DNA of 64,000 nucleotides from an uncultured Bacilli bacterium (GCA_934141145.1 CAKPCA010000004.1:802-64801); one strand, 5' to 3'; counted from the stretch's first letter, positions 5,589-55,048 are shown. Numbers and translations: made by a program. Notes: generated by a model from the sequence alone, not told the origin.

Positions 5589-8500
5589 TATTTACCTCCA
5601 TTCATAATATAATTTTTTATTCTTACATAATCTAATGCACTTATCTTTCCATCATTATTATAATCAGCTGATAATATAAATACATCTCCAGTGATTTTTT
5701 TAGTATTCATAATATGATTTTTTATTTTTACATAATCTAATGCATTAATATTACCATCACCATTAACATCACCTAAAACAGATGTATTATATATTTGAAC
5801 ATTACCTTCATCATCTGTATATGTTATAGTCATATTTGTTCTAATTAAATCATTATCTTTTAAGATATTGTTGTTACTCTTTATTATAGGATTATAATTT
5901 AAATTATTTTTAAATGTATTTATATTAATATTATTATTTAATTTATATATTATTTTTTTAGAACTATCATATGTATATTTATAAGTTATTGGTCTATTTT
6001 CTTTTTCCTTTACAGTAATATTATAAGTAGCCGTTTTATTCATTACTTTAGCAGTTATAACAGCATTACCTATTCCTTTAGCAGTTACAACTCCGTTATT
6101 AATAGTTGCAACATTATTATTACTACTTGTCCATGTTACATTTTTATTATCAGTTGTATTACTTGGATTATAAGACACTACTAGATTTTCTGTTTCACCT
6201 ATATATTTTGTACCACTAGTTTTATTTAAGTTAATGCTTTTAAGTGGGTTTAATATTACTTTTTCAATTACTTCATAATTAAATGTATTACTAATTCCTT
6301 CATATGTTATAGTAGCACTATAACTACCCACTTTATTTGTATTAAAATTAGTTATAGTATATTCATTATTACTAAGTTCTTTTCTATTTTTAGTATAATT
6401 AGCAATTACTTTTAAACCAGTTAAATCTACATTATCACCAACTGTATAAGTTGTTTTATTTGGTGATGTAATACTTAAAGATAATAAACTATTATTTGAT
6501 TCTTTATACTTTATATGAGTTATATCGTCTTTTATATATGAAATATATAATCTATTACCTATAGAAAATACACCACTATAATCTGCATTTACACCACTTG
6601 CAATATTATTTCCTTCCATTGTAACTTTATCGGATAATGAATAAACCATTAATACATTATCATTACTATATATATCAGTTGGATCTTTAATTGTTCTTAA
6701 ATAAAGATTACCTTGTGATTTAAATAATTGTGGTAAATTATATGGAATTGTTTCAGTTTTCTTTTTAAAATTAGTTCCATCAAATTCATATAATTCAATA
6801 TCACCAGTATTTTTACCAGCAATAATTATTTTATTATTTAAATCTTTCGCATCATATGAATTAACTAATATATCATTATTAATTTCTTTAAGAATATTAT
6901 TACCATATTCATATATTTTTATCTTTTTAGTACTTGATTCTCTTACCATTAAATATATTTTAGTATTAATTGATAAAACTTTTGGATCACCAACAAATGA
7001 ACCACTATAATAATTAGTTACTTTAGTTATATTATCATCTTTATATTTTAATAATTCAGCATTATTATTGTCATACATATTAGCAATATATAATTCATTA
7101 TTTATTACTTCAGTACTCATATAACCAGTTGAATAATTATATTCTGCTCTTTTTTTCCATACATTATTTTCTAAAGAATAAACACCTATTTTATTCCAAC
7201 AACCATATATTAAATATAATTTATTATTAATTATTTTAAATTCCATTGTACTTGGAGATACATCACCAATAACAATATTAGTACCATTTGATATAGTACT
7301 CCAATTACCATTATCATAAACAGTAGTATATAATTTATTATTTGTTATTGAACCCACATATATTTTATTATTCATTTCTATAGATGTTTGAACTTTATAA
7401 CCACTATTTTTATTAATATCATCATATTTTAATTCATTCCAAACATCTAAATCATCTTTATTTGGAATACTTACATTTAATGTAATACTGTTTGAACTTG
7501 ATGAACCTATTTCACTAAGTACTATACCTGAATTAGTTCCATCACTATATAATAATGCTTTATCTTTACTATTTAAATCACTATTACCTACAGTTGTTCT
7601 ACCAAGTTCTTTAGAAAAAACTGTATTATAAACTGCTGAAGATGGAGTACTATTTAAAGCAAAAGAATTATCTCTATATACATATACACCATATGAACCA
7701 AATTTATTACTTAAACCAGTTATTGTTGTATTAATTCTATATACAATAACACCACTATTACTTATACTTCTGTCTATCTTATCAAATAAAGTTGGTTTCT
7801 TTCTATATTCTACAACAAAAAATTCATAATCATTTAATGGTGATTTAATTATATATGCTTGATTACCATCTTTATTATCTTGAGTATTTAATGTAATAGT
7901 TCCAGATTTAGTAATTTCATCAATACTAAGCCAATTTGTAAAATAACTTCTTAAATAAGCAAGTGAATATGGAGGTGGTGAAATAACATTACCCATAATA
8001 TCCCAAGTAAATACTGGATAATCATTATTACTATTATATAAATCAGGATAACCTAAAGAATGCATAAATTCATGAATAATAACAGAACTCTTAGTATTTC
8101 TAATTGAATATGTATTAAGCATATTATAAGTACCTAAAGACTTATTAGATAATGTTATATCATTACCACCAGGATAATCACTCTTATGAGATACAAGAGA
8201 TGAATTAGAACCAGCATTATCAGCTTTATTCCTTAAAATAATAGTTAAATTATCAACAATACCATCATTATCATAATCAATTGTTCCACTAACATTTGGA
8301 TATTTTTTTAAAACATCACTAATAATAATTGAATCATAATTAGAATTATTCGCATCATCTTCTGTAATACTAAGTTCAATTGGAATAAAAGTACTATCAT
8401 TTATTTGAGGAAATAAATTATATAAATGAAAATTATTATAAGATATATTCTCTAAATAATTCTTAACACTAGTTTCACTAGAACCATTATAATACTCCAT

Positions 8501-8671
8501 TATAGTTTTATAATTATCTTCCATATATTTTTTACCCTCTAAATCACCATTAAAATATGTAAAAAATACTACGTTAGCATAATTTCTTTCATTATTAACA
8601 CTTTTAGCATATATATTACTAGGAAATAATAATATAATTATCATAATTAATATACATAAAAACTTCTTCAT
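5588..8671 (-). CDS. Secreted M6 (immune inhibitor A)-like zinc metalloprotease with beta-propeller-like repeats, Ig-like domains and a C-terminal type I dockerin
   Basis: Signal peptide, then the zinc motif VIIHEFMHSLGYPDLY. Repeated NNKLY / NNELY blades suggest a kelch-like propeller. There is a Big_2-like VTWTSSNNNVATINNGVVTAKGIGNAVITAKV segment. The C-terminal duplicated segment GDVNGDGNINALDYVKIKNHIM ... DYNNDGKISALDYVRIKNYIM is a dockerin. Confidence 0.7.
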   Translation of the reverse strand: MKKFLCILIMIIILLFPSNIYAKSVNNERNYANVVFFTYFNGDLEGKKYMEDNYKTIMEYYNGSSETSVKNYLENISYNNFHLYNLFPQINDSTFIPIELSITEDDANNSNYDSIIISDVLKKYPNVSGTIDYDNDGIVDNLTIILRNKADNAGSNSSLVSHKSDYPGGNDITLSNKSLGTYNMLNTYSIRNTKSSVIIHEFMHSLGYPDLYNSNNDYPVFTWDIMGNVISPPPYSLAYLRSYFTNWLSIDEITKSGTITLNTQDNKDGNQAYIIKSPLNDYEFFVVEYRKKPTLFDKIDRSISNSGVIVYRINTTITGLSNKFGSYGVYVYRDNSFALNSTPSSAVYNTVFSKELGRTTVGNSDLNSKDKALLYSDGTNSGIVLSEIGSSSSNSITLNVSIPNKDDLDVWNELKYDDINKNSGYKVQTSIEMNNKIYVGSITNNKLYTTVYDNGNWSTISNGTNIVIGDVSPSTMEFKIINNKLYLIYGCWNKIGVYSLENNVWKKRAEYNYSTGYMSTEVINNELYIANMYDNNNAELLKYKDDNITKVTNYYSGSFVGDPKVLSINTKIYLMVRESSTKKIKIYEYGNNILKEINNDILVNSYDAKDLNNKIIIAGKNTGDIELYEFDGTNFKKKTETIPYNLPQLFKSQGNLYLRTIKDPTDIYSNDNVLMVYSLSDKVTMEGNNIASGVNADYSGVFSIGNRLYISYIKDDITHIKYKESNNSLLSLSITSPNKTTYTVGDNVDLTGLKVIANYTKNRKELSNNEYTITNFNTNKVGSYSATITYEGISNTFNYEVIEKVILNPLKSINLNKTSGTKYIGETENLVVSYNPSNTTDNKNVTWTSSNNNVATINNGVVTAKGIGNAVITAKVMNKTATYNITVKEKENRPITYKYTYDSSKKIIYKLNNNININTFKNNLNYNPIIKSNNNILKDNDLIRTNMTITYTDDEGNVQIYNTSVLGDVNGDGNINALDYVKIKNHIMNTKKITGDVFILSADYNNDGKISALDYVRIKNYIMNGGK

Positions 8672-8926
8672 AAAACACCTACTACATCTTTTAATAATTA
8701 TAACAAATATATTTTAAATTTTTAATAGTTAATATAAAAAAATCAAGTTATTTTTACTTAATTTTTGATTAAATGTAAGTATTTGGAAATATTTTAAAAT
8801 AAATATACTAAAATAAGCAGATTTTCTAACTGAATAAAATGAATATCTAATTAAATTTTTTTAATACTATTACATTTAATAATATTTTTTACATTTTAAT
8901 CACTTATAATAACTAAATTACTTCAT

Positions 8927-9097
8927 TTTTGTGATATTTAATAATTATATCATCTGTTATTTCTTTATTATAAAGTTCTCCTTCACCTGATTTTGACCAT
9001 GGACTAGATTTACTATGAACTAATCTTACTAATTCAGATGTAAATAAATTACCATATTTATCTAACGTCTTATCAATACTAATCACTTTTTCATACC
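8927..9097 (-). pseudogene. Possible C-terminal remnant of a Panacea/DUF4065 (SocA-like antitoxin) domain gene
   Basis: My own translation gives WYEKVISIDKTLDKYGNLFTSELVRLVHSKSSPWSKSGEGELYNKEITDDIIIKYHKNEVI-stop. The ...L..L.H....PW... tail resembles Panacea domain C-termini. No N-terminal part is present, and the fragment abuts the IS remnant. Confidence 0.25.
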
Positions 9098-9790
9098 ATC
9101 TTTAGAAGATATAATTCTACTTCTAACTGACATAAGTTTCAATCCATTAGAGGATAAAATTGAATTGTCTGGCGAAATACAGTCAGATGAAAAATATTTT
9201 TCTATAAATTTAAAAGGAACTAGCTCTAATTAAATGCCAAGATTTTCAAAGAAAAGAACATCAACTTCTTCATTATATAGAGGAATAAATCATCATAAAA
9301 TATGTGTTGTGTCTAGTATAGATGAAAAAGATAATTTATTATTAAAGATAACTGGACTTGGTAGATGTACTACTGAAATGTTAGAAAACATTTTAGGTAA
9401 AAAATTAAAGAATGCAAAATCTATAAATGTTGATAGTGCAAGTGCATATCAAGAATTTTGTTTAAAGCATAATTTGAAATTAAATGCAGTGCCATCTGGA
9501 TTTCATAGTAATGGACAAATTAATATTTCAGAAATAAATGGAGTCCATTCGCAGTTAGAAGTTTGATTAAGCAAATTTAGAGGTGTATCAACAAGATATT
9601 TACAAGAATATTTAAACTGGTTTACATATATATTTATCATAAAAAAAAGATTCAATTTAAATAAATTAAAAACTGAATCTTATTCTAATATAATAATTGA
9701 TAACAATTATATTAATTCAAATAAAATATTTTCTATGGAAATGCCTATTGACTTAAATATTGTATATGCTGAATATGCCAATCAGTCATA
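9095..9790 (+). pseudogene. IS1595-family (ISXO2-like DDE) transposase remnant, 5'-truncated with two in-frame stops
   Basis: One frame reads ...LSGEIQSDEKYFSINLKGTSSN-TAA-MPRFSKKRTS...HSQLEV-TGA-LSKFRGVSTRYLQEYLNWF... These are the DEtyf, RG(i)s and fRGVS.kYL..YL.WF signatures of IS1595 transposases. The zinc-ribbon N-terminus is missing, and I identified no terminal inverted repeats. Confidence 0.6.
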
Positions 9791-25338: not shown

Positions 25339-26115
25339 TCACTTGACTAACTTTTTTATGTTATTAAGGGCATTTTTTTCTATTCTAGATACCTGTGCTT
25401 GACTTATTCCAAGCTCATCACTTATTTCCATTTGTGTTTTTCCTATTATAAATCTTTGGAGTAATATAAACTTTTCTTTCAATTTTAATTTATTTATTGC
25501 CATTTCAAGTACTAGTTTATCATTCCAATTATTACTTGATTCTTTTGGATTTGCTATTTGATCAAATAAATATATGGTTTCTCCTCCGTCATTATAAATA
25601 GGATCATACATACTAACTGTACTTTTAGTTGCTTCTAAAGCACTAACTATATCTATTTCATCTATTTCTAAAATTTCTGCAATCTCAGAAAGGCTTGCTT
25701 CTCTTCCTTCACTCATCATAATACTTTCTTTTATTTTAAGTGCTTTATATGCTATATCTTTCATACTTCTAGAAACTCTTACTATACTATTATCTCTTAA
25801 ATATCTTTTTACTTCACCTAAAATCATTGGTACTGCATATGTTGAAAATTTTACATTATATTTTAAATCAAAATTATCTATTGCTTTTACAAGACCAATA
25901 CAACCAACTTGAAACAAATCATCCATATTGTCAATTTTGTTATTAAAATTTTTTAATATACTTAATACTAGTTTTAGATTTCCATTTATTAAATCTTCTC
26001 TTGCAAACTTATCTCCATTTTGCATTTTTTTAAATAGTTCTAATTGTTCATCACTAGTTAATACTTTTAAATTTGCTGTATTTATTCCCGTTATTTCTAC
26101 TTTATGCTTTGCCAT
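25339..26115 (-). CDS. sigG: Sporulation sigma factor SigG (forespore, late)
   Basis: From the ATG at 26115 (RBS GAAGGGAGAG) it reads MAKHKVEITGINTANLKVL...GNLKLVLSILKNFNN...DDLFQVGCIGLVKAIDNFDLKYNVKFSTYAVPMILGEVKRYLRDNS.VRVSRS...GKTQMEISDELGISQAQVSRIEK. This is nearly collinear with B. subtilis SigG. Confidence 0.85.
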   Translation of the reverse strand: MAKHKVEITGINTANLKVLTSDEQLELFKKMQNGDKFAREDLINGNLKLVLSILKNFNNKIDNMDDLFQVGCIGLVKAIDNFDLKYNVKFSTYAVPMILGEVKRYLRDNSIVRVSRSMKDIAYKALKIKESIMMSEGREASLSEIAEILEIDEIDIVSALEATKSTVSMYDPIYNDGGETIYLFDQIANPKESSNNWNDKLVLEMAINKLKLKEKFILLQRFIIGKTQMEISDELGISQAQVSRIEKNALNNIKKLVK

Positions 26116-26158
26116 AAAAACTCTCCCTTCAGAATTTTTATGGTTCAAAAAATATTTT

Positions 26159-28411
26159 TTATTCAATTTTAAGTGACTCGATTATTCTCTTATTACTTGC
26201 TATTTTAGATGGTATTAATCCACCTATCATAGTAATAAATATACTTATTGTTATCAAAATAATAGCATGAGTAATTTTAAGACTTGCAATTTTTTCTAAA
26301 TGTATTGTGTCTTTTGCTATAGCATTTATTGGTAATATTAATATACAAGATATAATTATTCCAAGTATGCCTGACATAAAACCTAATATAAATGTTTCTG
26401 CATTAAATACTCTTGAAATATCTTTTTTTCTTGCACCTAAGGATCTTAATATGCCTATTTCTCTAGTTCTCTCAAGAACAGATATATATACTATTATTCC
26501 TATCATTATAGAAGATACTATAAGTGATATACATGAGAAAAAAATTAAAACTATAGTTATCGCATCCATAATATTTTTCATTAGAGAAATATAAGATGAT
26601 GATTTATCACTATATAAAATTTTTTCTTTATATTTTTTATTTTTATTATAATTATCTAGATATTTTAATATTTTTTTCTTAGAATCAAAATCTTTAGGAT
26701 ATATTTGAATTTCTAAAGATGAATTATCAAACCCTAAAGATGATAATACTCTATTTTTATCAAAATTCTTTTCTAAAGTAAGTACATTATAACTAGAATT
26801 TTTCTGTGATTTTACTATATCTGATTTAGAGTTTTCTTTTATAACATAGTCTATTAATGATTTATTATATAAAATTCCAGTACCATACATGTCAGAAAAA
26901 GTATTATCTTTTTTGCCTCTAATTACTGAAGTTATTTTAAGTTTTAATACACTTTTATTATATATATCACCATAGTCATTTACTTCATAATTAATGCCAT
27001 TGTAATTATAATAATCATTATTTAATGCGACCTTAAATTCTTTATTAAGAATTTTATCAAAAGTAATATCATCTTTACTATTATATCCAAGCACTTTAAG
27101 TACATTTGCATCTACTCTGTTTTTAGAATCTACTACTAAAGTTAAGTCTTCTTTTTTTAAAGAATAACTACCATATATTACATCATAATTATCTTTTATA
27201 ATTTTAGAATTTTTACCATTTAAACCTATAGGTTTTTGACTCATAATACTTTTATAATCAATTAATTTTATATCATTATTTATCTTTGTTAAAAGTTTTA
27301 TATTAGAAATATTTTTATATGTTATACCATATACTAAATCATTATCCATATTTTCTATATAAGTAATATATTTACTTGATAAATTATTTTTATGTATTTT
27401 ATCTTTTTCTAAAGTGAGTGAATATATTTTTTTACTATTACTATACTCTTTTAATTTTTCATTTTTATTTTCACTTTTTTCATCTAATACATCTTCATTA
27501 ATAGTTATTGGCATAATCATAGATGTATCTTTTTCAAAATCATAAATTTGATTTTTAAAACCGTTTGAAATTGATAATATTAATGCTATTCCAATTATTC
27601 CAATACTACTTGCAAATGTTGTTATAATCGTTCTTCCTTTTTTAGTTAATATATTATTAAATGATAGTTTTAACGCTGTAAAAAAGCTCATTGATATCTT
27701 ATTTAATTTATATCTATTTAATTTTTGCATCTTACTTTTGTTTCCTGTATCAGATAATACTTTACCATCCTTTAACTCAATGATTCTAGTTGAATATAAT
27801 TTTGCTAATTCTTTGTTATGCGTTACCATTATTACTAATTTATCTTTTGATATTTCTTTTATTAATTTCATTATTTGTTTACTTGTTTTAGAATCAAGTG
27901 CGCCAGTTGGCTCATCTGCTAAAATTATATCTGGATTATTTACTATTGCTCTTGCTATTGCTACTCTTTGCATTTGACCACCAGATAATTGATAAACTTT
28001 TTTATAAATATGATTTTTTAATCCAACCTTTTCAAGAGTAATGATTGCTTTTTTTCTTCTCTCTTTTTTAGATACACCACTTAGTAACATACTAAGTTCA
28101 ACATTATCTAATACTTTCATATGATTTATTAAATTATAATGCTGAAAAATAAAACCAATACTTTTATTTCTATATGAATCGAAGTCTTTATCTTTAAATC
28201 TTTTAGTAGATTTACCATTTATTATTAAATCACCACTATCATATTTATCTAAACCACCTATTATATTTAAAAGTGTTGATTTACCCGCTCCTGATGATCC
28301 TAAAATAGATACAAATTCATCATCTAAAAAAGATAAATTAATATTATCTAATACTTTAATATTATAATTATTTGTACTATAACTTTTACATATATTTACT
28401 AAGTCTAACAT
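26159..28411 (-). CDS. Fused ABC transporter ATP-binding/permease protein (MacB/FtsX type)
   Basis: It has Walker A GSSGAGKST, the signature LSGGQMQRVAIARA, Walker B ILADEPTGALD, a large extracytoplasmic domain and a C-terminal FtsX-type 4-TM bundle. Confidence 0.8.
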   Translation of the reverse strand: MLDLVNICKSYSTNNYNIKVLDNINLSFLDDEFVSILGSSGAGKSTLLNIIGGLDKYDSGDLIINGKSTKRFKDKDFDSYRNKSIGFIFQHYNLINHMKVLDNVELSMLLSGVSKKERRKKAIITLEKVGLKNHIYKKVYQLSGGQMQRVAIARAIVNNPDIILADEPTGALDSKTSKQIMKLIKEISKDKLVIMVTHNKELAKLYSTRIIELKDGKVLSDTGNKSKMQKLNRYKLNKISMSFFTALKLSFNNILTKKGRTIITTFASSIGIIGIALILSISNGFKNQIYDFEKDTSMIMPITINEDVLDEKSENKNEKLKEYSNSKKIYSLTLEKDKIHKNNLSSKYITYIENMDNDLVYGITYKNISNIKLLTKINNDIKLIDYKSIMSQKPIGLNGKNSKIIKDNYDVIYGSYSLKKEDLTLVVDSKNRVDANVLKVLGYNSKDDITFDKILNKEFKVALNNDYYNYNGINYEVNDYGDIYNKSVLKLKITSVIRGKKDNTFSDMYGTGILYNKSLIDYVIKENSKSDIVKSQKNSSYNVLTLEKNFDKNRVLSSLGFDNSSLEIQIYPKDFDSKKKILKYLDNYNKNKKYKEKILYSDKSSSYISLMKNIMDAITIVLIFFSCISLIVSSIMIGIIVYISVLERTREIGILRSLGARKKDISRVFNAETFILGFMSGILGIIISCILILPINAIAKDTIHLEKIASLKITHAIILITISIFITMIGGLIPSKIASNKRIIESLKIE

Positions 28412-45939: not shown

Positions 45940-46178
45940 TACCTCCAAAAAAGAAAAATATCCATGAATGTAAGGACGATTTTTTCGCGGTACCACCTTA
46001 CTTCATAGATATTTCTATGCTCTTTAAATATTTAACGCATATCATACGTAACATTTTAATTATATTTCAAATGTTAGGTTCATAAGCTACCTTCAAATAT
46101 TATATTTATTAGTTTTCACCAAGCACTAACTCTCTTTTAAAATATTAATATTTTACTCCTCTTAATCAAAACCTTTAT
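45940..46178 (-). promoter_or_regulatory. T-box leader with valine (GUA) specifier
   Basis: On the minus strand the stem I elements are AGAGAGTTAGTGCTTGGTGAAAAC. The specifier-loop candidate TGAAG-GTA-G has GUA at 46090-46088. The T-box sequence is AAGGTGGTACCGCG (46000-45986). A terminator-like hairpin AAAAAATCGTCC...GGATATTTTT is followed by CTTTTTT, then the RBS. Confidence 0.7.
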
Positions 46179-46516: not shown

Positions 46517-46891
46517 TTATTTTGTATACTGATTATTCCTTATAAATTCCCTTAAGAGCTTAGTAATTGCTCTTTTTTCTATTCTTGATACATAACTTCT
46601 AGATATATTAAGTTCTTTTGCAATTTCTTTTTGTGTTAATTCATCATAACCATTAAACCCATATCTTTTATATATAATTAGTTTTTCTCTATCTGATAAT
46701 ACATTTAAGTATTTACCTAATAATTCAATATTATTTTTTAAATGTATATCTTCTGCAAAATCTGGTTTTGGAGTCTTTAATATATCCATAAATGTTATTT
46801 CATTACCATCTTTATCATAACCTACAGATTCATCAATACTAATATTTTTACTATTTTTTTTATCACTTCTAAAGTGCATCAATATTTCATT
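46517..46891 (-). CDS. sigK: 3' segment of the split sigK gene (spoIIIC-equivalent; sigma regions 3-4)
   Basis: From codon N27 of ORF 46517..46969 it reads NEILMHFRSDKKNSKNISIDESVGYDKDGNEITFMDILK...LSDREKLIIYKRYGF....LTQKEIAKELNISRSYVSRIEKRAITKL. The 26 codons upstream (MMMIATYK...) lie inside the element and are not sigma-like. Confidence 0.85.
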   Translation of the reverse strand, partial: NEILMHFRSDKKNSKNISIDESVGYDKDGNEITFMDILKTPKPDFAEDIHLKNNIELLGKYLNVLSDREKLIIYKRYGFNGYDELTQKEIAKELNISRSYVSRIEKRAITKLLREFIRNNQYTK

Positions 46892-48647
46892 CGCCACTAT
46901 CACTTGAAAGAACGATTTTGCCGTTATGCGTTGCTGATAATCCGTCTTGTACGTTGCTATCATCATCAAATAGTTGTGGTTTAGTAGTTATTGTGTGATT
47001 TCTACTACCGATTAAATCCATATATATTTTTTTGCCATCGGTTTCCATATTACCTACAAATAATTTGATTAGATTACGTTTGCTTATTATATCTAATTCA
47101 TCAAACCTACAAATATATTTAGTTAGTATTTCAAAAACAACTTTGGCTGTTTCTTGGTCGTTAATGATTTGATTTGGTTGTTCTTGCTTTAATTTTTGTA
47201 TATTGGTTGCTATTTCATTGTTTTTACGTTTTAATTCTTTCATTTGTGCTTGTACTACATCAAATATTTCATCATCAACAAGTGCTAAACGATTAGCAAG
47301 ATTTTTTATTTCATTTTCATTTTTACTATAATTACGTTCTAATACTTGTAATTCATCATTTTTATTTTTGCTATCATAATCGTTGTCGGTTGCGATTTCT
47401 TCTATTGCTTTGTAAAATTCGCTTGTTGGATTTGCTAATTCTTTCATACCACGCATAACTAACTCATCGGCTTCATTTCCGTTTATGTTTTTACAAGAAC
47501 ATTTTTCGCCTTTACTTTTCATTTTTAAATCGCATATATAATCAAACCTTAAATCGCCGTTAGCCGTTTTATTTTGTTTTAGTTTTGCTCTCATAAGTGA
47601 ATGACAATGACTACAACGAAGAACACCAACTAATATTGCGTTATTCTTAATTGGTTTACGATAGTTTTTATCTTCATTTGCTTTTAATATTTCTTGTACT
47701 TGTACCCAATCTTTACCACTTATAATGCCGTTGTGTTGTCCAATAGCAACAATCCAATCTTGTAAATCTTTATATTTTACACGTCCCGTTTTAGTTTTTT
47801 CGGTTTTACAATAGCCAATTATTCCGTGTTTTCCGTTAAATTCTTCTTTATCGTTATATACTTCAACGTCATTTTCTAAAAAGTAATTAAGAACGTCTTT
47901 GTCAGCAACGGCATATACGGGATTTCTTAAAATGTTTTTAACACCCCAACGGGAAAAATCACAATTTCTTTTTGTCTTAAAATTATTTTGTATTAAAAAA
48001 CTTTCAACTTGTGTTTGTGATTTATATTCCAAAAATTTTTGAAATATTGTTTTAATAATTGCTATTTCATCATCAATAGGTACAAGTTTATATAAATTGA
48101 CTTTCTTTCCGTTTATGTTTTCTTTTTCCATCTTTTCACTCATAAATCCAAGTGGAACATTACCACCAAGCCAACGTCCCGTTTTTGCTAATTTATACAT
48201 ATTATCTCTTACACGTTCGGCGATTGTATCACGTTCAAGTTGTGCGAATGTAATTGCAATAAATAACATCGCTTTACCCATAGGGGTAGTCGTATCAAAC
48301 CTTTCACTTACTGAAATAAAGTTTACATCGTGTTCTTGCCAATCTTCATATAAATTAGCAAAGTCTAATACATTACGGGAAACACGGTCAAGACGATAAC
48401 AAATAATAGTATCAAACTCATCATTTTTAATTGCTTTCATCATTTCTTGGAATTGTGGTCTATCGGTATTTGCCCCCGTATAACCCTCATCGTTATATAC
48501 AATTATATCATCATCGGTTAAAGTTGTATCAATATACGTTTTTAAATAATGCTTACAAGTATCAATTTGGTTTTCTATACTTTCGCCTTTACCCGTAAAC
48601 TTTGATTTACGCGAATATATCGCTTTTTTTCTTTTTCTTTCTTCCAT
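46887..48647 (-). CDS. spoIVCA: Large serine recombinase (SpoIVCA/TnpX-like)
   Basis: The N-terminal resolvase domain reads KAIYSRKSKFTGKGESIENQ...CYRLDRVSRNVLDF (catalytic Ser in YSRKS). It also has a recombinase domain, a zinc-ribbon (CSHC...C..K...KC.C) and a coiled-coil. Its TGA stop (46889-46887) overlaps the CATT crossover core. Confidence 0.85.
   Translation of the reverse strand: MEERKRKKAIYSRKSKFTGKGESIENQIDTCKHYLKTYIDTTLTDDDIIVYNDEGYTGANTDRPQFQEMMKAIKNDEFDTIICYRLDRVSRNVLDFANLYEDWQEHDVNFISVSERFDTTTPMGKAMLFIAITFAQLERDTIAERVRDNMYKLAKTGRWLGGNVPLGFMSEKMEKENINGKKVNLYKLVPIDDEIAIIKTIFQKFLEYKSQTQVESFLIQNNFKTKRNCDFSRWGVKNILRNPVYAVADKDVLNYFLENDVEVYNDKEEFNGKHGIIGYCKTEKTKTGRVKYKDLQDWIVAIGQHNGIISGKDWVQVQEILKANEDKNYRKPIKNNAILVGVLRCSHCHSLMRAKLKQNKTANGDLRFDYICDLKMKSKGEKCSCKNINGNEADELVMRGMKELANPTSEFYKAIEEIATDNDYDSKNKNDELQVLERNYSKNENEIKNLANRLALVDDEIFDVVQAQMKELKRKNNEIATNIQKLKQEQPNQIINDQETAKVVFEILTKYICRFDELDIISKRNLIKLFVGNMETDGKKIYMDLIGSRNHTITTKPQLFDDDSNVQDGLSATHNGKIVLSSDSGE
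46888..46913. repeat. Left junction of the sigK-intervening element (shared core CATT plus the element-side inverted-repeat arm)
   Basis: The core CATT lies at 46888-46891. The arm CGCCACTATCACTTGAAAGAAC (46892-46913) is the imperfect inverted repeat of 54662-54681. Confidence 0.7.
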
Positions 48648-48765
48648 AAAAAGTCGTCCTTTCTTTTATGTGATATATAATATATTATATCATAAATTAT
48701 ACAATAAATATAGTATTTTCTATGATTTTGTGCTAAAATATTATATCAATGAAAGGACGTGTATT

Positions 48766-49713
48766 ATGCAAAATTGTTTAAAGAAAAACTTTTCACATCA
48801 TATTTTATTTGATAATAAGTATGCTGAACAATCATATATTGCGTATCTTTCAAAAGGAAAAAGAAAATACATAATGAATTCAAGCGATTATGTAGAAAGA
48901 TTTATTGTTTTTACTATTGATTTTATTTTTAGAATTAACAATGCAATTTGTAGACGTGGTTTAGTAGAAAATAACAAAGAAGATATAAGAAAATTGTATG
49001 ATACACCAAAAGATGTTGAAAAATATTCTTATTATACTAAAATGACGGTCAATGACGTTTATAACGATATAAAAAGATATAAACTTACAAATGAATATGA
49101 ACAAGAAATATTTGATATGTTAGAAAAGGTTGTAAACTTAAAAGATAAACTATTTACGAATTATGATGATTTTAAAAGTGGTATATATGAATTAGTAAAA
49201 ACGATTGATGACAAACATTATACTTGGATTGTTGGGGAAAATATTATATATAATAGGTCTATTCGCGATAACGAAAGTAAAAAATATTATTGTGCCGTTA
49301 TAGGTCAAAAAGGTTATAAAAGATTTAAAACGATTTATTATAATAATGTCTATTTAGAAACGCGTATAAAAAAGATTACGTTTGAACAAGTATGCGATTT
49401 ACTTATTGTTATTGCTGATACATACAACGAATTAATTATAAAAGAATATGACAATGCAAGTGATATCATTAACGATTATATAAAAAATAATGCCGATATG
49501 TTTAATTGTAAAGATATATATTATGCTAAAATATTTATGGATTTAAAGAAAATATCTTTATTATTACAAACTGATAAACAAAAAGATGTTGTAAAACTGA
49601 TGAAAGATATTATACAAAGTGAAAATAAAAAATATAAAAATGATTTTCTTTTATATGAAAATATACCGATTGATGAAAATGCTATTGAGCAAGGTCAATA
49701 TATTGAATTATAA
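48766..49713 (+). CDS. Hypothetical protein (315 aa), element cargo, divergent from the recombinase gene
   Basis: The preferred start is the ATG at 48766 behind GAAAGGA. No motif recognised. Confidence 0.45.
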   Translation: MQNCLKKNFSHHILFDNKYAEQSYIAYLSKGKRKYIMNSSDYVERFIVFTIDFIFRINNAICRRGLVENNKEDIRKLYDTPKDVEKYSYYTKMTVNDVYNDIKRYKLTNEYEQEIFDMLEKVVNLKDKLFTNYDDFKSGIYELVKTIDDKHYTWIVGENIIYNRSIRDNESKKYYCAVIGQKGYKRFKTIYYNNVYLETRIKKITFEQVCDLLIVIADTYNELIIKEYDNASDIINDYIKNNADMFNCKDIYYAKIFMDLKKISLLLQTDKQKDVVKLMKDIIQSENKKYKNDFLLYENIPIDENAIEQGQYIEL

Positions 49714-49863
49714 GGAAATAATATTAAAAAGTGCATTTTTTACAATAACCTACCAATTAGGTTAAATGCATTTTTTTTATTGTTTTCTTTTTTTCTTTTG
49801 CTAATATAGTTCTTGCAAAGAAAAAACGCGTTTCATATTTGCAAGATGGGGGGTGGTCAATAA

Positions 49864-50064
49864 TTGGAATTAATTATCAATTTGCCAACTGATGAAAAAG
49901 GAATAAAAGAATTCAATACGGCTTTTGCAAAAGTACAAGCAACGTTAGTGAAAAAATGTATTGATGATTTGAATATTGATAAACAATCTAAACAAAAGGT
50001 AGTTAATGAATTGTTGACTACTCTAAAAAAACAAGTTGACGAAAGGAAAATGAAGAATGAATAA
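49864..50064 (+). CDS. Small conserved element protein, paralog A1 (66 aa)
   Basis: It has a TTG start behind GGGGGGTGG. LIINLPTDEKGIKEFNTAFAKVQ... is about 55-60% identical to 53976..54179. Confidence 0.5.
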   Translation: MELIINLPTDEKGIKEFNTAFAKVQATLVKKCIDDLNIDKQSKQKVVNELLTTLKKQVDERKMKNE

Positions 50065-50419
50065 TGAAGAAAATATAAAAGAAAAAACGAAAGAAAAAAT
50101 AAAAGAAAAAAAAGTCTATTTATCCGATAATAAAAATGATAGCAAACAACGTGAAGCAGTAGACAATTTAAAAAAAGCAATCGTAAAAGAAGCAATCAAA
50201 AATTATACTGATGAAACGCCAAGTGGCTTATGGTTTGACTTATTTATGATATATTTAGAAAGTAGAACAAAACCTAATAAATCAAAAAATGATTTTAATT
50301 ATCGCATAGAACGTATTTATAACAATGTTATAAGTATGTATAGCGATTTTAAAGAATTTACCGAACCCGTTTTAAACAAAAGTAGAAAAGCAACAATAGT
50401 TGATAATAATAACAACTAA
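50057..50419 (+). CDS. Hypothetical protein (120 aa)
   Basis: This ORF overlaps the previous stop. A hairpin follows at about 50508-50540. Confidence 0.4.
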   Translation: MNNEENIKEKTKEKIKEKKVYLSDNKNDSKQREAVDNLKKAIVKEAIKNYTDETPSGLWFDLFMIYLESRTKPNKSKNDFNYRIERIYNNVISMYSDFKEFTEPVLNKSRKATIVDNNNN

Positions 50420-51070
50420 ACTAAAATTAAAGTATTCCTATACTACAAATAAACTAAAAGAAAGGATTTGATAAACTTAATTTAAACTATATTTAAAGAT
50501 ATAACAAAGGAGTGGACTTACATTAAGTCTATTCCTTTTATTATTATTTAAAATATTGATATTAATATATGTAAGAGTAAATACTATTTTTATAATAAAT
50601 AGATTAGTTAAATACTATATAAGTAAATTAAGTTAAATTTAATATAATTATATATAAATAAATTAATAAAATAATATAATACAAGTTAAATGTATTAAAA
50701 GTATTATTATCTTTTCATAAGGAATAATATTATTTTTTTACCATAAGACTATTATTATATATTTATAATTTAATATAGTTTATAACCTTTTGTAAAGTAT
50801 AGATTTAAAGAAAATTAATTAACCCCCTAATAAAAATTATTATTCACTTCGTTCATAATAATTTTATTCCCCCTTCTTGATAAAAGAAAATTCCACCTTT
50901 TAGAAAATAAGCAAATTAAGGTTGTTTTAAACGGCAATTAGGTATTTGACTTATAATTTATCTATTTAATGATTTTCATAACAGAGAACAACCTAATTTT
51001 GCTAAATAAAAGGTGTTTATATAAATTGAAAGAGTGTATATACAATGACGTATAAACACTCTTTATTTTT

Positions 51071-51310
51071 TTAGTCTATGTCTTTAAAGAATTCACACAT
51101 AGATACATTCAATTTTTTAGATATTACATATAAGAACTCTAAACTAAATGTTTGATAACTACTATTTTCAATATTAGCAATAGTACCCTCATTATATTGT
51201 ATTAAATCGGCTAATTGAACTTGTGTAAGTCCTTTTTCTTTTCTAATTCTTTTTATGTTTTTACCAACTATCACATAAATATACTTGTTATCATCTTTCT
51301 TTATTTCCAC
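51071..51310 (-). CDS. XRE-family HTH transcriptional regulator
   Basis: NIKRIRKEKGLTQVQLADLIQYNEGTIANIEN is the Cro/CI-type HTH pattern. Confidence 0.7.
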   Translation of the reverse strand: MEIKKDDNKYIYVIVGKNIKRIRKEKGLTQVQLADLIQYNEGTIANIENSSYQTFSLEFLYVISKKLNVSMCEFFKDID

Positions 51311-51388
51311 GAAATCATCACCATAATAATTATCTTATGAACATTTATCAAATGTACTACATTTAATATATGTAGTTATGGCGATTAT

Positions 51389-51634
51389 ATGTTAAAATTA
51401 TATTGGAGGTGGAATATGTTAAAAAAAATATTTGTGATACTTGCTATCGTTGGTATGATTTTAATTGGTGTGTTAGCATTTACTATACCAAGTAATCCAA
51501 ACGAAATTATACCAACAATGACAATAACGGGATTTGATAAGCCGTTATGGTTTTACATTATATTTGGTTTTGGATTTATTTATCTAATGATATTATGGTC
51601 AATCTATGATAAATTAAAAGAAAAAATAGCATAA
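51389..51634 (+). CDS. Small two-TM membrane protein
   Basis: It has two hydrophobic helices. The start is uncertain (an alternative ATG lies at 51416). It is divergent from an XRE gene. Confidence 0.4.
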   Translation: MLKLYWRWNMLKKIFVILAIVGMILIGVLAFTIPSNPNEIIPTMTITGFDKPLWFYIIFGFGFIYLMILWSIYDKLKEKIA

Positions 51635-51645
51635 CGGGAATTATA

Positions 51646-51903
51646 CTATTTTGTGTCGCTGACGTCATCAAATAATTGCCTTATATCAATATTTAATGCG
51701 TCGGCAATTCTTCCTATGACTACCAAAGTAAAATATTTATTAGGATTTGCACTTTCAATTTGCGATATGTAGTGCATACTAACATCTATTCTATCGGCTA
51801 ATTCTTGTTGTGTTATATTAGCCAATGTTCTATACTTTTTAATGTTTTTCCTAACAATATTGTAATAATAGTAGTCATCGTGGAAATCGAACTTTTTGTC
51901 CAT
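51646..51903 (-). CDS. XRE-family HTH transcriptional regulator
   Basis: The preferred start is the ATG at 51903 behind GGTGG. The HTH reads NIKKYRTLANITQQELADRIDVSMHYISQIES. Confidence 0.7.
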   Translation of the reverse strand: MDKKFDFHDDYYYYNIVRKNIKKYRTLANITQQELADRIDVSMHYISQIESANPNKYFTLVVIGRIADALNIDIRQLFDDVSDTK

Positions 51904-52004
51904 AATTACCACCTATTAATATTATTTCAAACTATTGGTTAGAATTATATGCACTGATGGTTAGAATTATGGTATAATAGTATTATAGAAAAGGAGTATG
52001 TTGT

Positions 52005-52763
52005 ATGAAAAAGAAAATTAGTTTATTTATATTATGTGGTGTTATTTTATTAGGTTTATGTGGTTGTGGTAATAAAGAAACTACTTTTCAATTAAGTTAT
52101 GAAAAGATATCTGATGATTTGATAATCACAAGTGGTTCAACGGGTTATAAAATAATTCTACCAACAAACACAAAGTTTTTTGAAAAGCCCGATGTATTAA
52201 AAGGAATTTTTAAATTTTATGATTATTCTAATGGAGAAAGAATTGAAGATATTTCTTATAGTACAAATATTGATGTATCTAAAGCTGGAATATATACGAT
52301 TGATATAGAGGGTAAATATAATGAGAAAATTGGTACGACACAATTAGAAGTGGAACTTGTAGAAAGTTGTAGTGGTACTTGTACCATAAACACAACTAAT
52401 TGGAATATTGAATTAGATGGTACTTTTACTTATGGTGATTATAGTCCTAATTATATTTTAAAAGTTAAATCAACTTTTTCACCAAATGCAAGTGCTTTTG
52501 AGTTTAATACTAAAACCGAGCAATATGAACCTATAAATGATGGTTTTATAAATCTATATTATAAAAATTATGCTTTTTACAATACGGAACAAGCAAGCAC
52601 ATATAATTATGGCGACAATGCAATAAGTCAAAACTATCAATTAAATGAAAAGAAAGAAAATATGTATGTTCAATTTACATCTATTCCTAAACTTGAAGGA
52701 GAAGCATTTATAGATTTTTATGACAAAGTAGCAAAAAAACATAATTTTTACATAGTAAATTAA
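52005..52763 (+). CDS. Lipoprotein of unknown function
   Basis: Signal peptide with the lipobox LCGCG. Confidence 0.6.
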   Translation: MKKKISLFILCGVILLGLCGCGNKETTFQLSYEKISDDLIITSGSTGYKIILPTNTKFFEKPDVLKGIFKFYDYSNGERIEDISYSTNIDVSKAGIYTIDIEGKYNEKIGTTQLEVELVESCSGTCTINTTNWNIELDGTFTYGDYSPNYILKVKSTFSPNASAFEFNTKTEQYEPINDGFINLYYKNYAFYNTEQASTYNYGDNAISQNYQLNEKKENMYVQFTSIPKLEGEAFIDFYDKVAKKHNFYIVN

Positions 52764-52782
52764 GAAAGGAGAAAAGATTTGT

Positions 52783-53112
52783 ATGAAAAAAATTTTTATA
52801 ATAATAATGCTATTATCAATAGTAGTATTAAGTGGTTGCTCAAATAAAAGCGAAAATAACCTAAATGGTAAATATGTTTCAATAAAAGATAACAATGAAT
52901 ATTTAGAAATATATGATGATGGAAAATGCTATTATCATAATAATAGTATGGATATTCACGATTGTACATATTATAATTCAAATAATAGTATTAGGATTGA
53001 ATATGGTGAATATAATGTAATAACAGAAAAAGAAGAACATCACTCCCAAGTTTTTGAAATAGTTGATAATAACCTTAAAAAAAGTGATGGAACAATGTTT
53101 TACATTAAATAA
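52783..53112 (+). CDS. Small lipoprotein of unknown function
   Basis: Signal peptide with the lipobox LSGCS. A terminator-like hairpin follows at about 53111-53146. Confidence 0.6.
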   Translation: MKKIFIIIMLLSIVVLSGCSNKSENNLNGKYVSIKDNNEYLEIYDDGKCYYHNNSMDIHDCTYYNSNNSIRIEYGEYNVITEKEEHHSQVFEIVDNNLKKSDGTMFYIK

Positions 53113-53463
53113 GTATATAGGCAAATGCTTATATACTTTTTCTTTTGGCTAAATCTAATTACGGGCAAACTTGCTCTTTTAGAATATGAATACCTTTTTT
53201 TACTCAACCTGACCCCCTATACCTAATAAAACTTATTTTAAAGGTTATTCCTGTTCGTTTTTATCTTTTATGATGAATTACACTAACTTTATATAAATGT
53301 GTCTAAAAACGGGCTAAAAATGGCAAATAAAGGTATATTACAAGAACATTTGTTCTATATAATTTTATTGTCTTAACTATCTATATGTTATATATGTATT
53401 ATTGATAACAATTTATAGTTTTGCTTTCTCATTTCTACTACTAAATAAGGAGATGATGAAAGT

Positions 53464-53652
53464 ATGAATAATACAACATACTATAATTTAAAAGATATTA
53501 GTATCTTAATTAAAACACCTATACCATATTTAAGAAAAATGATAAAAGAACATAAACTAATAGCAAGTTTTATTGGTAGACAATATGTCGTTAGTGATAA
53601 TGATTTAAAAATATATATTAATAATTGTAAAGGTGCTAAAAATGAAAAATAA
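53464..53652 (+). CDS. Excisionase-family (MerR-like) HTH protein; candidate recombination directionality factor
   Basis: 62 aa. YYNLKDISILIKTPIPYLRKMIKEHKLIASFIGRQYVVSDNDLKIYI follows the excisionase-family DNA-binding domain pattern. The RBS is AAGGAG. Confidence 0.55.
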   Translation: MNNTTYYNLKDISILIKTPIPYLRKMIKEHKLIASFIGRQYVVSDNDLKIYINNCKGAKNEK

Positions 53653-53935
53653 TAAAGTTAGTATTGATTTAGATTTAGAAGATTTATTTGGATTAAAAGA
53701 AAACACCAATACACTTGAATATGATTTGAATTTCATTATTGATAATGGTATAGATAAATATTTAGAAAAACAACAAGAAGAAAAAACAAAAGATAAAGAA
53801 TTTATGGAATTATTTAAAAGGAATTATAACAATATAGTTAAGTTTATAGAAATGGACGGACGTATTGCCGTTAATTGTTATACGTGCATTAAAGGTATGG
53901 ATTTATCAAAAAAATATGGTAAACCTAAAAAATAA
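53642..53935 (+). CDS. Hypothetical protein (about 97 aa)
   Basis: This ORF overlaps the Xis-like gene. The ATG at 53642 lies behind AAAGGTG. Confidence 0.4.
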   Translation: MKNNKVSIDLDLEDLFGLKENTNTLEYDLNFIIDNGIDKYLEKQQEEKTKDKEFMELFKRNYNNIVKFIEMDGRIAVNCYTCIKGMDLSKKYGKPKK

Positions 53936-53975
53936 TATTTTTTCTTTTTTGTCATACCTTTAATTAGGTGGTTAA

Positions 53976-54179
53976 ATGCAACTAATAATAAATTGTCCTA
54001 CTGATGAAAAAGGAATAAAAGAGTTTAACACGGCTTTTGCCCAAGTACAAAAGGAATTAGTTTTATATAGTATAAGAAAATTAAATCTTGATATTCAATC
54101 AAAAGAAAAAATATTAAATCATTTAGTAATTGAGTTAAAAAAGCAAGTAGACAAAAAAGAGAGATTAAAGGAATTATAA
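53976..54179 (+). CDS. Small conserved element protein, paralog A2 (67 aa)
   Basis: MQLIINCPTDEKGIKEFNTAFAQVQ... is paralogous to 49864..50064. The RBS is AGGTGG. Confidence 0.5.
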   Translation: MQLIINCPTDEKGIKEFNTAFAQVQKELVLYSIRKLNLDIQSKEKILNHLVIELKKQVDKKERLKEL

Positions 54180-54548
54180 ATATTCTTTTAATCTCTCATA
54201 TTTTTTTCGGCTTATGTGGGTGTTTCCAAGTTCCCAACGTCTAACTGATGTATCACTAACACCTAATAAGTCGGCGAATGCTTGTCTTGATACTTTAAGT
54301 TTTTTTCTTGCTTTTAAAATCTTATCACACGGATTGTCTAACAAGAATGATATGTATTCATCATTTATAATAAGTTTATCTTCAATATTCAACTCTTTAA
54401 TGATACCTTTTATAAGTTCAACGTTAACAAGTTTAATATCTTTATTTTCTAAATGATTTAAGGTACTACGATGAAAGTTTAATTTTGTTCCTAAATCGGT
54501 TTGCTTAATATCATCAATAGAACGATAATATTTGATTTGTTCCCCCAA
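54174..54548 (-). CDS. Regulator with two XRE-type HTH domains
   Basis: The N-terminal HTH is IKYYRSIDDIKQTDLGTKLNFHRSTLNHLEN. The second HTH is ILKARKKLKVSRQAFADLLGVSDTSVRRWELG. Confidence 0.6.
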   Translation of the reverse strand: MGEQIKYYRSIDDIKQTDLGTKLNFHRSTLNHLENKDIKLVNVELIKGIIKELNIEDKLIINDEYISFLLDNPCDKILKARKKLKVSRQAFADLLGVSDTSVRRWELGNTHISRKKYERLKEYL

Positions 54549-54661
54549 CGTACTTTGCGACGTGATATTCTTAACTTGTCTACAAGTATGGGTTGTTAAT
54601 GTAAAAGAAAGTTCACAAAACGTACTAATTTTTGAAAATAGGTCATTTATTGCAACATATA

Positions 54662-54685
54662 GTTCTTTTAGGTGATAGTCGCATT
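54662..54685. repeat. Right junction of the sigK-intervening element
   Basis: The element-side arm GTTCTTTTAGGTGATAGTCG (54662-54681) is followed by the core CATT (54682-54685). Confidence 0.7.
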
Positions 54686-55048
54686 ATCTATACATCTTGC
54701 ACAATATGTAGTGAGTTTAGTACCATGTTTATATGAATATGTATCTATTCCTTTAATTAAACCTATTATTCCTATACTTATTAAGTCATCTACATCTGTT
54801 CTATTAGTTTCGTATTTTTTTACTATATGTACAACTAATCTTAAATTATGTTCTATAAGTTTATTTCTAGCTTCTTTATCTCCATTTAAGTACTTTTTTA
54901 TACATTCTTCCTCTTCTTCTTTACTTAGTGGATCAGGAAATACATTATTAGAATAACTTCCTGTAAAACAAAACATACTTTTTATTAAAGTAGTTAAAAC
55001 TGTTAAAAACAAAATATCACTTCCTAATAAAATATATGCAAAACACAT
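54668..55048 (-). CDS. sigK: 5' segment of the split sigK gene (spoIVCB-equivalent; pro-sequence plus sigma region 2)
   Basis: It reads ...FTGSYSNNVFPDPLSKEEEEECIKKYLNGDKEARNKLIEHNLRLVVHIVKKYE....DDLISIGIIGLIKGIDTY....GTKLTTYCARCIDN, then four element-encoded codons (ATIT) and a stop. The start is uncertain. The ATG at 55048 lies inside the spoIVB terminator hairpin. A TTG at 55012 behind AGGAAGTG would give a pro-sequence of about 20 aa. Confidence 0.85.
   Translation of the reverse strand: MCFAYILLGSDILFLTVLTTLIKSMFCFTGSYSNNVFPDPLSKEEEEECIKKYLNGDKEARNKLIEHNLRLVVHIVKKYETNRTDVDDLISIGIIGLIKGIDTYSYKHGTKLTTYCARCIDNATIT

Follow-up and report, generated by a model that had tools for sequence, protein, structure and literature searches.

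Skin elements are stretches of DNA that interrupt sigK, a mother-cell-specific gene that encodes a late sigma factor of sporulation. In the 15 firmicute genomes surveyed by Galperin et al. they range from 2.6 to 48 kilobases (kb) and encode between 2 and 67 proteins (2022, bioRxiv 10.1101/2022.02.25.481979). Their recombinase gene, spoIVCA, always lies at the element's edge, most often just upstream of spoIIIC, the 3' fragment of the divided gene, and SpoIVCA-like proteins are interspersed with phage integrases (bioRxiv 10.1101/2022.02.25.481979). The known directionality factors of such elements are proteins of 58-72 amino acids (aa), and the genes for integrase and factor, int and rdf, flank the attachment site attP in the excised circle (PMC6957869; PMC5025042). 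Here we describe an element of 7.8 kb that splits sigK within a 64,000-nucleotide (nt) stretch of DNA, ‘the window’, from an uncultured Bacilli bacterium (GCA_934141145.1 CAKPCA010000004.1:802-64801). It is a further member of the known skin class, from an uncultured gut lineage of low guanine-plus-cytosine (GC) content (24% in the window, 25% in the element). An earlier reading of the window, the original prediction, had called it far smaller than known elements and near-minimal; that novelty of size is unsupported, since it falls within the published range and related elements are as short as ~3.0 kb. We think it probable that this is a non-phage, skin-class integrative element, inserted by a serine recombinase at an AATG sequence in sigK and excised together with a small-protein factor, and that excision rebuilds the recombinase gene.

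The two pieces of sigK, and the attachment sites through which they meet the element, are as follows (positions are those of the window):

54686..55048, minus strand: 5' fragment of sigK, coding for the pro-sequence and region 2 (residues 1-121 and part of codon 122; NF004471 positions 5-114)
46517..46887, minus strand: 3' fragment of sigK, coding for regions 3 and 4 (codon 123 onwards, stop included)
54682..54685, minus strand: attL copy of the core, AATG, of which AA is the predicted crossover dinucleotide
46888..46891, minus strand: attR copy of the core, AATG, placed by the junction and empty-site alignments
54662..54681, minus strand: attL arm on the element side (CGACTATCACCTAAAAGAAC), pairing with the attR arm as an imperfect inverted repeat
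46892..46913, minus strand: element-side arm of attR (GTTCTTTCAAGTGATAGTGGCG), within the recombinase coding sequence

The open reading frame (ORF) at 54668..55048 (minus strand) encodes a pro-sigma N-terminus and region 2, reaches ...TTYCARCIDN, and then ends with the residues ATIT and a stop. The ORF at 46517..46969 (minus strand) contains ...VIVANEILMHFRS... and is sigma-like from NEILMHFRS through regions 3 and 4. Both loci share AATG (CATT on the plus strand), at 54682-54685 and 46888-46891, and a junction made there reads TGT ATA GAT AAT GAA ATA TTG ATG CAC, in frame, giving a product of 245 aa. This product matches the SigK model NF004471 end to end (309.7 bits against a cut-off of 252; model positions 5-232 of 235). 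Singly, the halves score ~150 bits each, and each covers its corresponding half of the model. Against the stricter TIGR02846 the joined protein scores 295.1 bits, just below the cut-off of 298.65, and SigE models score it much lower.

The same protein occurs in nature. An intact SigK identical to the joined one (100% identity over 100% of the length) is encoded on 85 public contigs. We read eight of these, and in each an uninterrupted sigK stands in the order thyA-spoIVB-sigK-74aa-HD-valS, as in the window, where ‘74aa’ and ‘HD’ denote a 74-aa protein and an HD-domain protein. They match the window at 92-98% nt identity up to 54682 and again from 46891, overlapping by 4 base pairs (bp), so the insert measures 7,794 bp, counting one core. 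The original prediction had located the split from the two ORF ends, the switch at NEILM and the shared CATT; all of these sequence-level statements hold, its junction and frame are exact, and empty sites exist whose alignment to the window breaks precisely at the core. In sequence terms, then, the split of sigK is confirmed as real and precise, and the insertion as reversible.

Metagenome assemblies carry a general risk of chimeras, and this risk is all that speaks for a split created by misassembly. An identical 126-aa N-terminal fragment with its ATIT tail is present on 12 other contigs from other samples, a recurrence that argues against an artefact; a Hadza sample (behind ERZ4560197) is one of those with the occupied allele. 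The junctions are the same in independent assemblies, the alignments to empty sites break precisely and overlap by 4 bp, and dozens of genomes share the attachment-site structure. We regard a chimera as refuted by these observations, its residual probability being negligible.

With 85 contigs carrying the intact allele and 12 the split one, the assemblies show that empty and occupied alleles coexist within the species and that most conspecific assemblies are without the element, which makes it an optional mobile element rather than a fixed regulatory device. This scarcity, together with the fact that no excision has been observed, would also suit a dead-end insertion, in which excision has been lost, sigK is a pseudogene and the strain no longer sporulates. 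Such decay is very improbable. In protein sequence, the two halves of sigK are 100% identical to the intact allele; the recombinase gene, the small gene and both attachment arms are undamaged and agree with the family consensus; and the occupied allele is spread over 12 contigs from several samples. The host also keeps the SigK pro-sequence, spoIVB and a SigG/F-like gene, the latter two intact in the window. There is no second sigK in the 64-kb window, where the SigG/SigF-like gene (25339-26166, minus strand; 364.7 bits against the SigG model, whose cut-off is 372) is the sole other sigma gene; it supports a sporulating host.

The element enters sigK at the AA of the AATG core, in the codons for Asp-Asn-Glu-Ile. 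Read in the sense of sigK, attL is GATAATG followed by CGACTATCACCTAAAAGAAC, and attR is GTTCTTTCAAGTGATAGTGGCG followed by AATGAAATA. Rebuilt from the two, attP is an imperfect palindrome of 46 bp with the core's AA at its centre. A serine integrase would be expected to have such a layout: a short site (about 40-50 bp), arms in inverted repeat and a central dinucleotide. Across the 32 complete elements from which we derive all counts of arms, small proteins and downstream frames, the arms are conserved, and left and right arms co-vary between sub-lineages. A second sequence resembling the core, GGTAATGAAATA, occurs in sigK at 46796-46807, in codons for Gly-Asn-Glu-Ile. It matches the 10-nt core GTAATGAAAT of phage PhiS63, which lies at nt 427 of the Clostridium perfringens sigK, so that both classes of sigK insertion site have AATGAAAT in common. 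The elements skinCd and skinCt occupy a location similar to the PhiS63 site (PMC3442830).

The enzyme and its presumptive promoter are encoded at the element's edge beside the 3' fragment of sigK and run the same way as that gene:

46887..48647, minus strand: large serine recombinase, 586 aa when integrated, with Resolvase, Recombinase and Zn_ribbon_recom domains
48669..48692, minus strand: upstream of the recombinase, conserved extended -10 sequence TGnTATAAT within a palindrome (TGATATAATAT/ATTATATATCACA)

All three Pfam domains score above their cut-offs (PF00239, E = 2.1e-35; PF07508, 2e-18; PF13408, 1.3e-07). The N-terminal motif of the catalytic serine is YSRKS (Y-x-R-x-S), with R13 and S15 invariant in an alignment of 10 relatives. 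The nearest solved structures are TP901-1 integrase and SPbeta SprA, the closest phage relatives are integrases of Clostridia phages (36-40% identity), and the best NCBIfam matches, CcrB, CcrC and XisF, are all far under cut-off. The name ‘SpoIVCA-type’, given to the enzyme in the original prediction, is apt only as a functional label; among family models, none tells SpoIVCA and phage integrases apart. The promoter palindrome, GTGATAT...ATATCAC, resembles the attachment arms (GTGATAGT / ACTATCAC), and from this likeness the recombinase, or its helix-turn-helix (HTH) domain, may bind its own promoter. A general sigma-70 promoter scan of the region returned 80 sites where 81 were expected; in DNA of 25% GC such a scan is useless for the element.

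A scan in which each species was represented by one genome, made with an alignment of relatives of the recombinase, yielded 582 relatives. Of these matches, the best 80 are 41-98% identical to the recombinase, and in nearly all of those 80 the sigK 3' fragment, beginning at residues ~119-122, follows directly after the recombinase. Their hosts include uncultured Bacilli, Oscillospiraceae, Ruminococcus, Lacrimispora and others. By sequence and position, then, the element is part of a large recombinase lineage specific for sigK. Where both halves of sigK could be reached, related elements (loci of this survey are labelled L0xx) measure ~3.0 kb in L021 and L040, 4.6 kb, 5.7-6 kb, and up to >10 kb.

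The element moves between species. In L097 a collinear element is 95.7% identical in nucleotide sequence over 7.76 kb, with flanking sigK halves at 66-67%; in L015 the recombinase is 98% identical and the element ends are identical, the host SigK is only ~62% identical, and the middle cargo is different. Near-identical elements beside divergent sigK genes point to horizontal transfer between species. No transfer or packaging genes were recognised in the element.

Several loci of the survey show further rearrangements. L081, a metagenome-assembled genome (MAG) labelled Paenibacillaceae, holds an element of ~15.6 kb in which two identical small genes are separated by ~7.8 kb and a further recombinase stop occurs 7.8 kb upstream; it looks like a tandem pair of elements at sigK. 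In L009, an IS21-type insertion (7627-9577; a Mu-transposase C-terminal domain and IstB) lies within a 6.1-kb sigK element, which would be ~4 kb without it. The 3.0-kb element of L040 has one cargo gene beyond the small gene and the recombinase, for a 223-aa sigma-70-like protein. Recombinases of the same family are found in MAGs labelled ‘Tenericutes’ or ‘Mycoplasma sp.’ (L030, L032, L035 and L039); a sigK fragment lies beside the recombinase in L030, L035 and L039, and L032 ends just past the recombinase. These labels are probably misleading for Bacilli that resemble spore-formers.

Integration may divide two genes at once. The stop codon of the recombinase, TGA, consists of the last two bases of the core and the first base of sigK. 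In attP this stop is lost, and the frame remains open through the attL arm and beyond:

54174..54683, minus strand: open frame of 169 codons with no stop and no ATG, comprising a 45-codon linker and a 124-aa double-HTH ‘XRE’ frame (TTG at 54548)

Excision in silico joins the 586-aa recombinase to linker and HTH domains in a single frame of 755 aa. In the integrated state the linker-HTH frame is closed at the core by a TAA taken from the GAT AAT of sigK, and the 124-aa double-HTH frame by itself could start only at a TTG and shows no obvious ribosome-binding site. A stop-free, in-frame connection exists in 16 of the 32 elements, including distant lineages of higher GC content with unrelated linkers.

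Natural counterparts of the fusion came from a search of the element's open frame against 1.84 billion representative proteins. Single proteins of 753, 716 and 736 aa have recombinase domains followed by a linker and two HTH domains, and the 755-aa protein built in silico aligns with the 753-aa one over residues 9-755, across the junction, at 47% identity. The gene for the 753-aa protein lies on a contig of 7,514 bp with a terminal direct repeat of 141 bp, indicative of a circle of 7,373 bp. This circle has an attP of the family type and, after it, a member of the small-protein family. The gene for the 716-aa protein lies on phage-like contigs of up to ~19 kb with holin, M23 peptidase, FtsK-like and Rep genes. 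Among the best 80 of the 582 genome loci, none has the recombinase in its fused, attP form. We put at about even the chances that integration cuts the recombinase gene as well as sigK, the 586-aa form being that of the integrated element and the 755-aa fusion being confined to the excised circle.

Two details of the linker region stand apart. An inverted repeat, ACTTGT-AG-ACAAGT (54574-54587), lies in a linker stretch conserved at the DNA level and is a possible operator within the open frame. P0361 and similar proteins of 165-174 aa come from hosts in which sigK reads AGA TGT ATA GAA AAT G. There, the +1 frame has an ATG four codons before the core, and the integrated linker-HTH frame starts from the ATG of sigK; in the window, GAT produces TAA instead.

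The small protein that we propose as partner of the recombinase is encoded beside attL:

53976..54179, plus strand: 67-aa helical-hairpin protein of an unannotated family, candidate recombination directionality factor; CATAnnnT upstream, within 53933-53960
49864..50419, plus strand: second copy of the small protein (66 aa, 49864-50064; ~62-66% aa identity to the first copy), followed by a 120-aa protein

Members of this family, of 55-67 aa, are encoded in 31 of the 32 complete elements, both 3.0-kb elements included. The two copies in the window (53976-54179 and 49864-50064) are 71% identical over 184 nt; two copies are also found in L012, L015, L016 and L018. The family's relatives in the databases all lack both a name and a Pfam domain. 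For the protein, a hairpin of two helices is confidently predicted (predicted local distance difference test, pLDDT, 90), and neither a Foldseek fold search nor a profile search matched it to the PDB, which includes SPbeta SprB. In the circle, the small gene and the recombinase gene would be neighbours on either side of attP. Its size, its position flanking attP and its occurrence in 31 of 32 elements make the small protein the best candidate for the directionality factor.

CATAnnnT is a -10 sequence of the type used by mother-cell sigma factors. It occurs within 70 nt upstream of 49% of non-redundant small genes and of 12% of control ORFs; in shuffled sequences the frequency is 8.7%, and no shuffle exceeds 26%. 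The window's motif reads TAATATT-N13-CATACCTT, 23 nt before the ATG. That this sigma-E/K-like motif is a mother-cell promoter is suggestive only.

The remaining genes of the element are its cargo and putative regulators:

48766..49713, plus strand: 315-aa protein, likely start ATG at 48766 with ribosome-binding site AAAGGA (listed from GTG at 48670)
51071..51912: XRE repressor-like genes at 51071-51310 (minus strand) and 51646-51912 (minus strand), flanking a gene for an 81-aa membrane protein at 51389-51634 (plus strand)
52005..53112, plus strand: two lipobox proteins of 252 aa (52005-52763) and 109 aa (52783-53112), variable cargo
53464..53652, plus strand: 62-aa protein with a weak HTH_17 (excisionase-like) match (E = 0.0024, below the Pfam cut-off)
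53633..53935, plus strand: CxxC-containing protein of 100 aa, conserved among some of the elements

The 315-aa gene is divergent from the recombinase gene and is found in the closest relatives only. In L015, other genes stand in place of the lipobox pair. The HTH_17 gene opens a run of three genes that ends with the 67-aa gene. No structural match in PHROGs, Pfam or NCBIfam identified a phage structural gene among the cargo, and the 315-, 120-, 100-, 81- and 252-aa proteins and their homologues at related loci (E up to 1) matched nothing credible in Pfam, NCBIfam, PHROGs or PADLOC. A prophage or defective prophage was considered and rejected, there being no match to phage structural, packaging or lysis genes. 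The inventory in the original prediction, a large serine recombinase, two lipoproteins and no phage structural genes, was borne out; of its ‘three to four’ XRE repressors and Xis-like protein we count three XRE-type genes, one of them the double HTH, and one weak HTH_17. Outside the element, an Rfam scan of the window matched only a T-box leader (45969-46178, minus strand; 135 bits), which lies upstream of the HD-domain gene and valS and is unrelated to the element.

We can now set out how the element might work. A large serine recombinase, made from a housekeeping-type (sigma-A) promoter, would insert the element at the AA of the AATG core in sigK. Excision would depend on a directionality factor, for which the conserved 55-67-aa protein encoded near attL is the most likely candidate. 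Expression of this small protein in the mother cell would restore sigK there, and the spore would retain the element. Integration would shorten the recombinase to 586 aa, and excision would rebuild the 755-aa recombinase-linker-double-HTH protein. The original prediction spoke of a ‘developmental excision cassette’; from the sequence, excision timed to sporulation is plausible.

The main competitor of this scheme is an ordinary mobile element for which sigK is a safe harbour. Excision would then be stochastic, or triggered by an XRE switch or by stress, and repair of sigK would be a side effect of basal excision. The sigma-A look of the recombinase promoter fits such an element, as do its three XRE-type genes, which recall the lysogeny switches of phages, its optional presence in the species, its mobility between species, and relatives that include a circular contig with a DnaB_C-like gene and the ~19-kb phage-like contigs. 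Against it, the whole recombinase lineage is confined to one codon position of one mother-cell-specific gene, which fits selection for excision in the mother cell; the partner gene is preceded more often than controls by a sigma-E/K-like -10 motif; and all sigK elements studied by experiment excise in sporulation (PMC5025042, PMC10745906, PMC6957869). We judge the safe-harbour account unlikely.

Our preferred reading, of an element excised in the mother cell by its recombinase and small protein, has to accommodate several observations that weigh against it. The predicted attP junction of the window element (GTGATARTRGCRAATGCRACTATCAC; GTGATAGTGGCGAATGCGACTATCAC) has no match in JGI metagenome contigs or IMG/VR, a null that is weak and uninformative because the attL pattern itself was found just three times in JGI contigs. 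The small protein has no detectable similarity to known directionality factors. Its upstream motif would leave a leader of only ~9 nt and has no conserved -35 region. As to the fusion, the circular contig belongs to a relative at ~47% protein identity, distinct from the window element, and the HTH extension is absent from half of the elements, which means that it is not needed for recombination. The linker is weakly constrained: its bias by codon position is weak (102/81/118 differences), and its codon changes comprise 43 synonymous and 133 non-synonymous ones.

A single skin element says little more than that such elements are common, and the wider survey is the more useful result. It reveals that, in Bacilli and Clostridia alike, one recombinase lineage has come to specialise on a single codon position of sigK, moving between species without recognisable transfer genes and accompanied by a small protein in 31 of 32 elements. 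These elements offer compact, naturally orthogonal sets of integrase, attachment sites and candidate factor. The split of the recombinase gene is a testable case of a mobile element sensing its own integration: if true, a readout of its state would be built into the element, by which directionality, self-repression or re-integration could be set. Taken with the small partner, it would define a widespread, compact, sigK-targeting family that moves horizontally in gut Firmicutes, and a putative new family of directionality factors.

Among described systems, the skin element of Bacillus subtilis (48 kb, with SpoIVCA and the 64-aa Skr) is similar in that sigK is interrupted and a serine recombinase gene at the edge overlaps the attachment site. 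Its core, AATGA, matches the AATG(A) of the window (PMC10745906). As in the window, the host SigK keeps its pro-sequence and the element is dispensable. The insertion codon is presumably the same, judging from the core and from the B. subtilis gene. Unlike the window element, skin is six times larger and derived from a prophage; its spoIVCA is controlled by sigma-E and SpoIIID and is overlapped by skr. The spoIVCA gene also abuts the 5' fragment of sigK in the opposite direction (PMC10745906), whereas the window recombinase adjoins the 3' fragment.

The skinCd element of Clostridioides difficile (14.6 kb, with CD1231 and the 72-aa CD1234) would share the logic proposed here. Its recombinase promoter is of the sigma-A type, with inverted repeats (PMC5025042), and the extended -10 sequence in a palindrome upstream of the window recombinase resembles this constitutive CD1231 promoter. 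Excision of skinCd is controlled by a small, unannotated protein whose leader is short (PMC5025042), as we infer for the window. The two differ in the position of insertion, which for skinCd is near the PhiS63 site at nt 427 (PMC3442830), and in the sigma factor itself: the SigK of C. difficile has no pro-sequence and that of the window has one. The small skin elements of Galperin et al. (2022) belong to the same class, with the recombinase immediately upstream of spoIIIC and sizes that bracket that of the window element. In that survey the recombinase is the sole gene common to all skin elements; here, within one recombinase lineage, the small protein is found in 31 of 32.

Two comparisons reach beyond sigK. 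The gin element in gerE of Bacillus cereus (GirC and GirX) is, like the window element, not a prophage, and it too interrupts a mother-cell gene; its excision takes a serine recombinase together with a directionality factor (PMC5595907). It differs in its target gene, gerE, and in having three recombinase genes. In the myxophage Mx8 (intP/intX), attP lies within int and integration alters the 3' end of that gene, although Mx8 Int is a tyrosine recombinase; in Tn4451, the circle junction creates the tnpX promoter. In both, as proposed for the window element, the state of integration changes the recombinase gene itself. The window element would differ from them in that a whole double-HTH domain is detached and a host gene is split at the same time.

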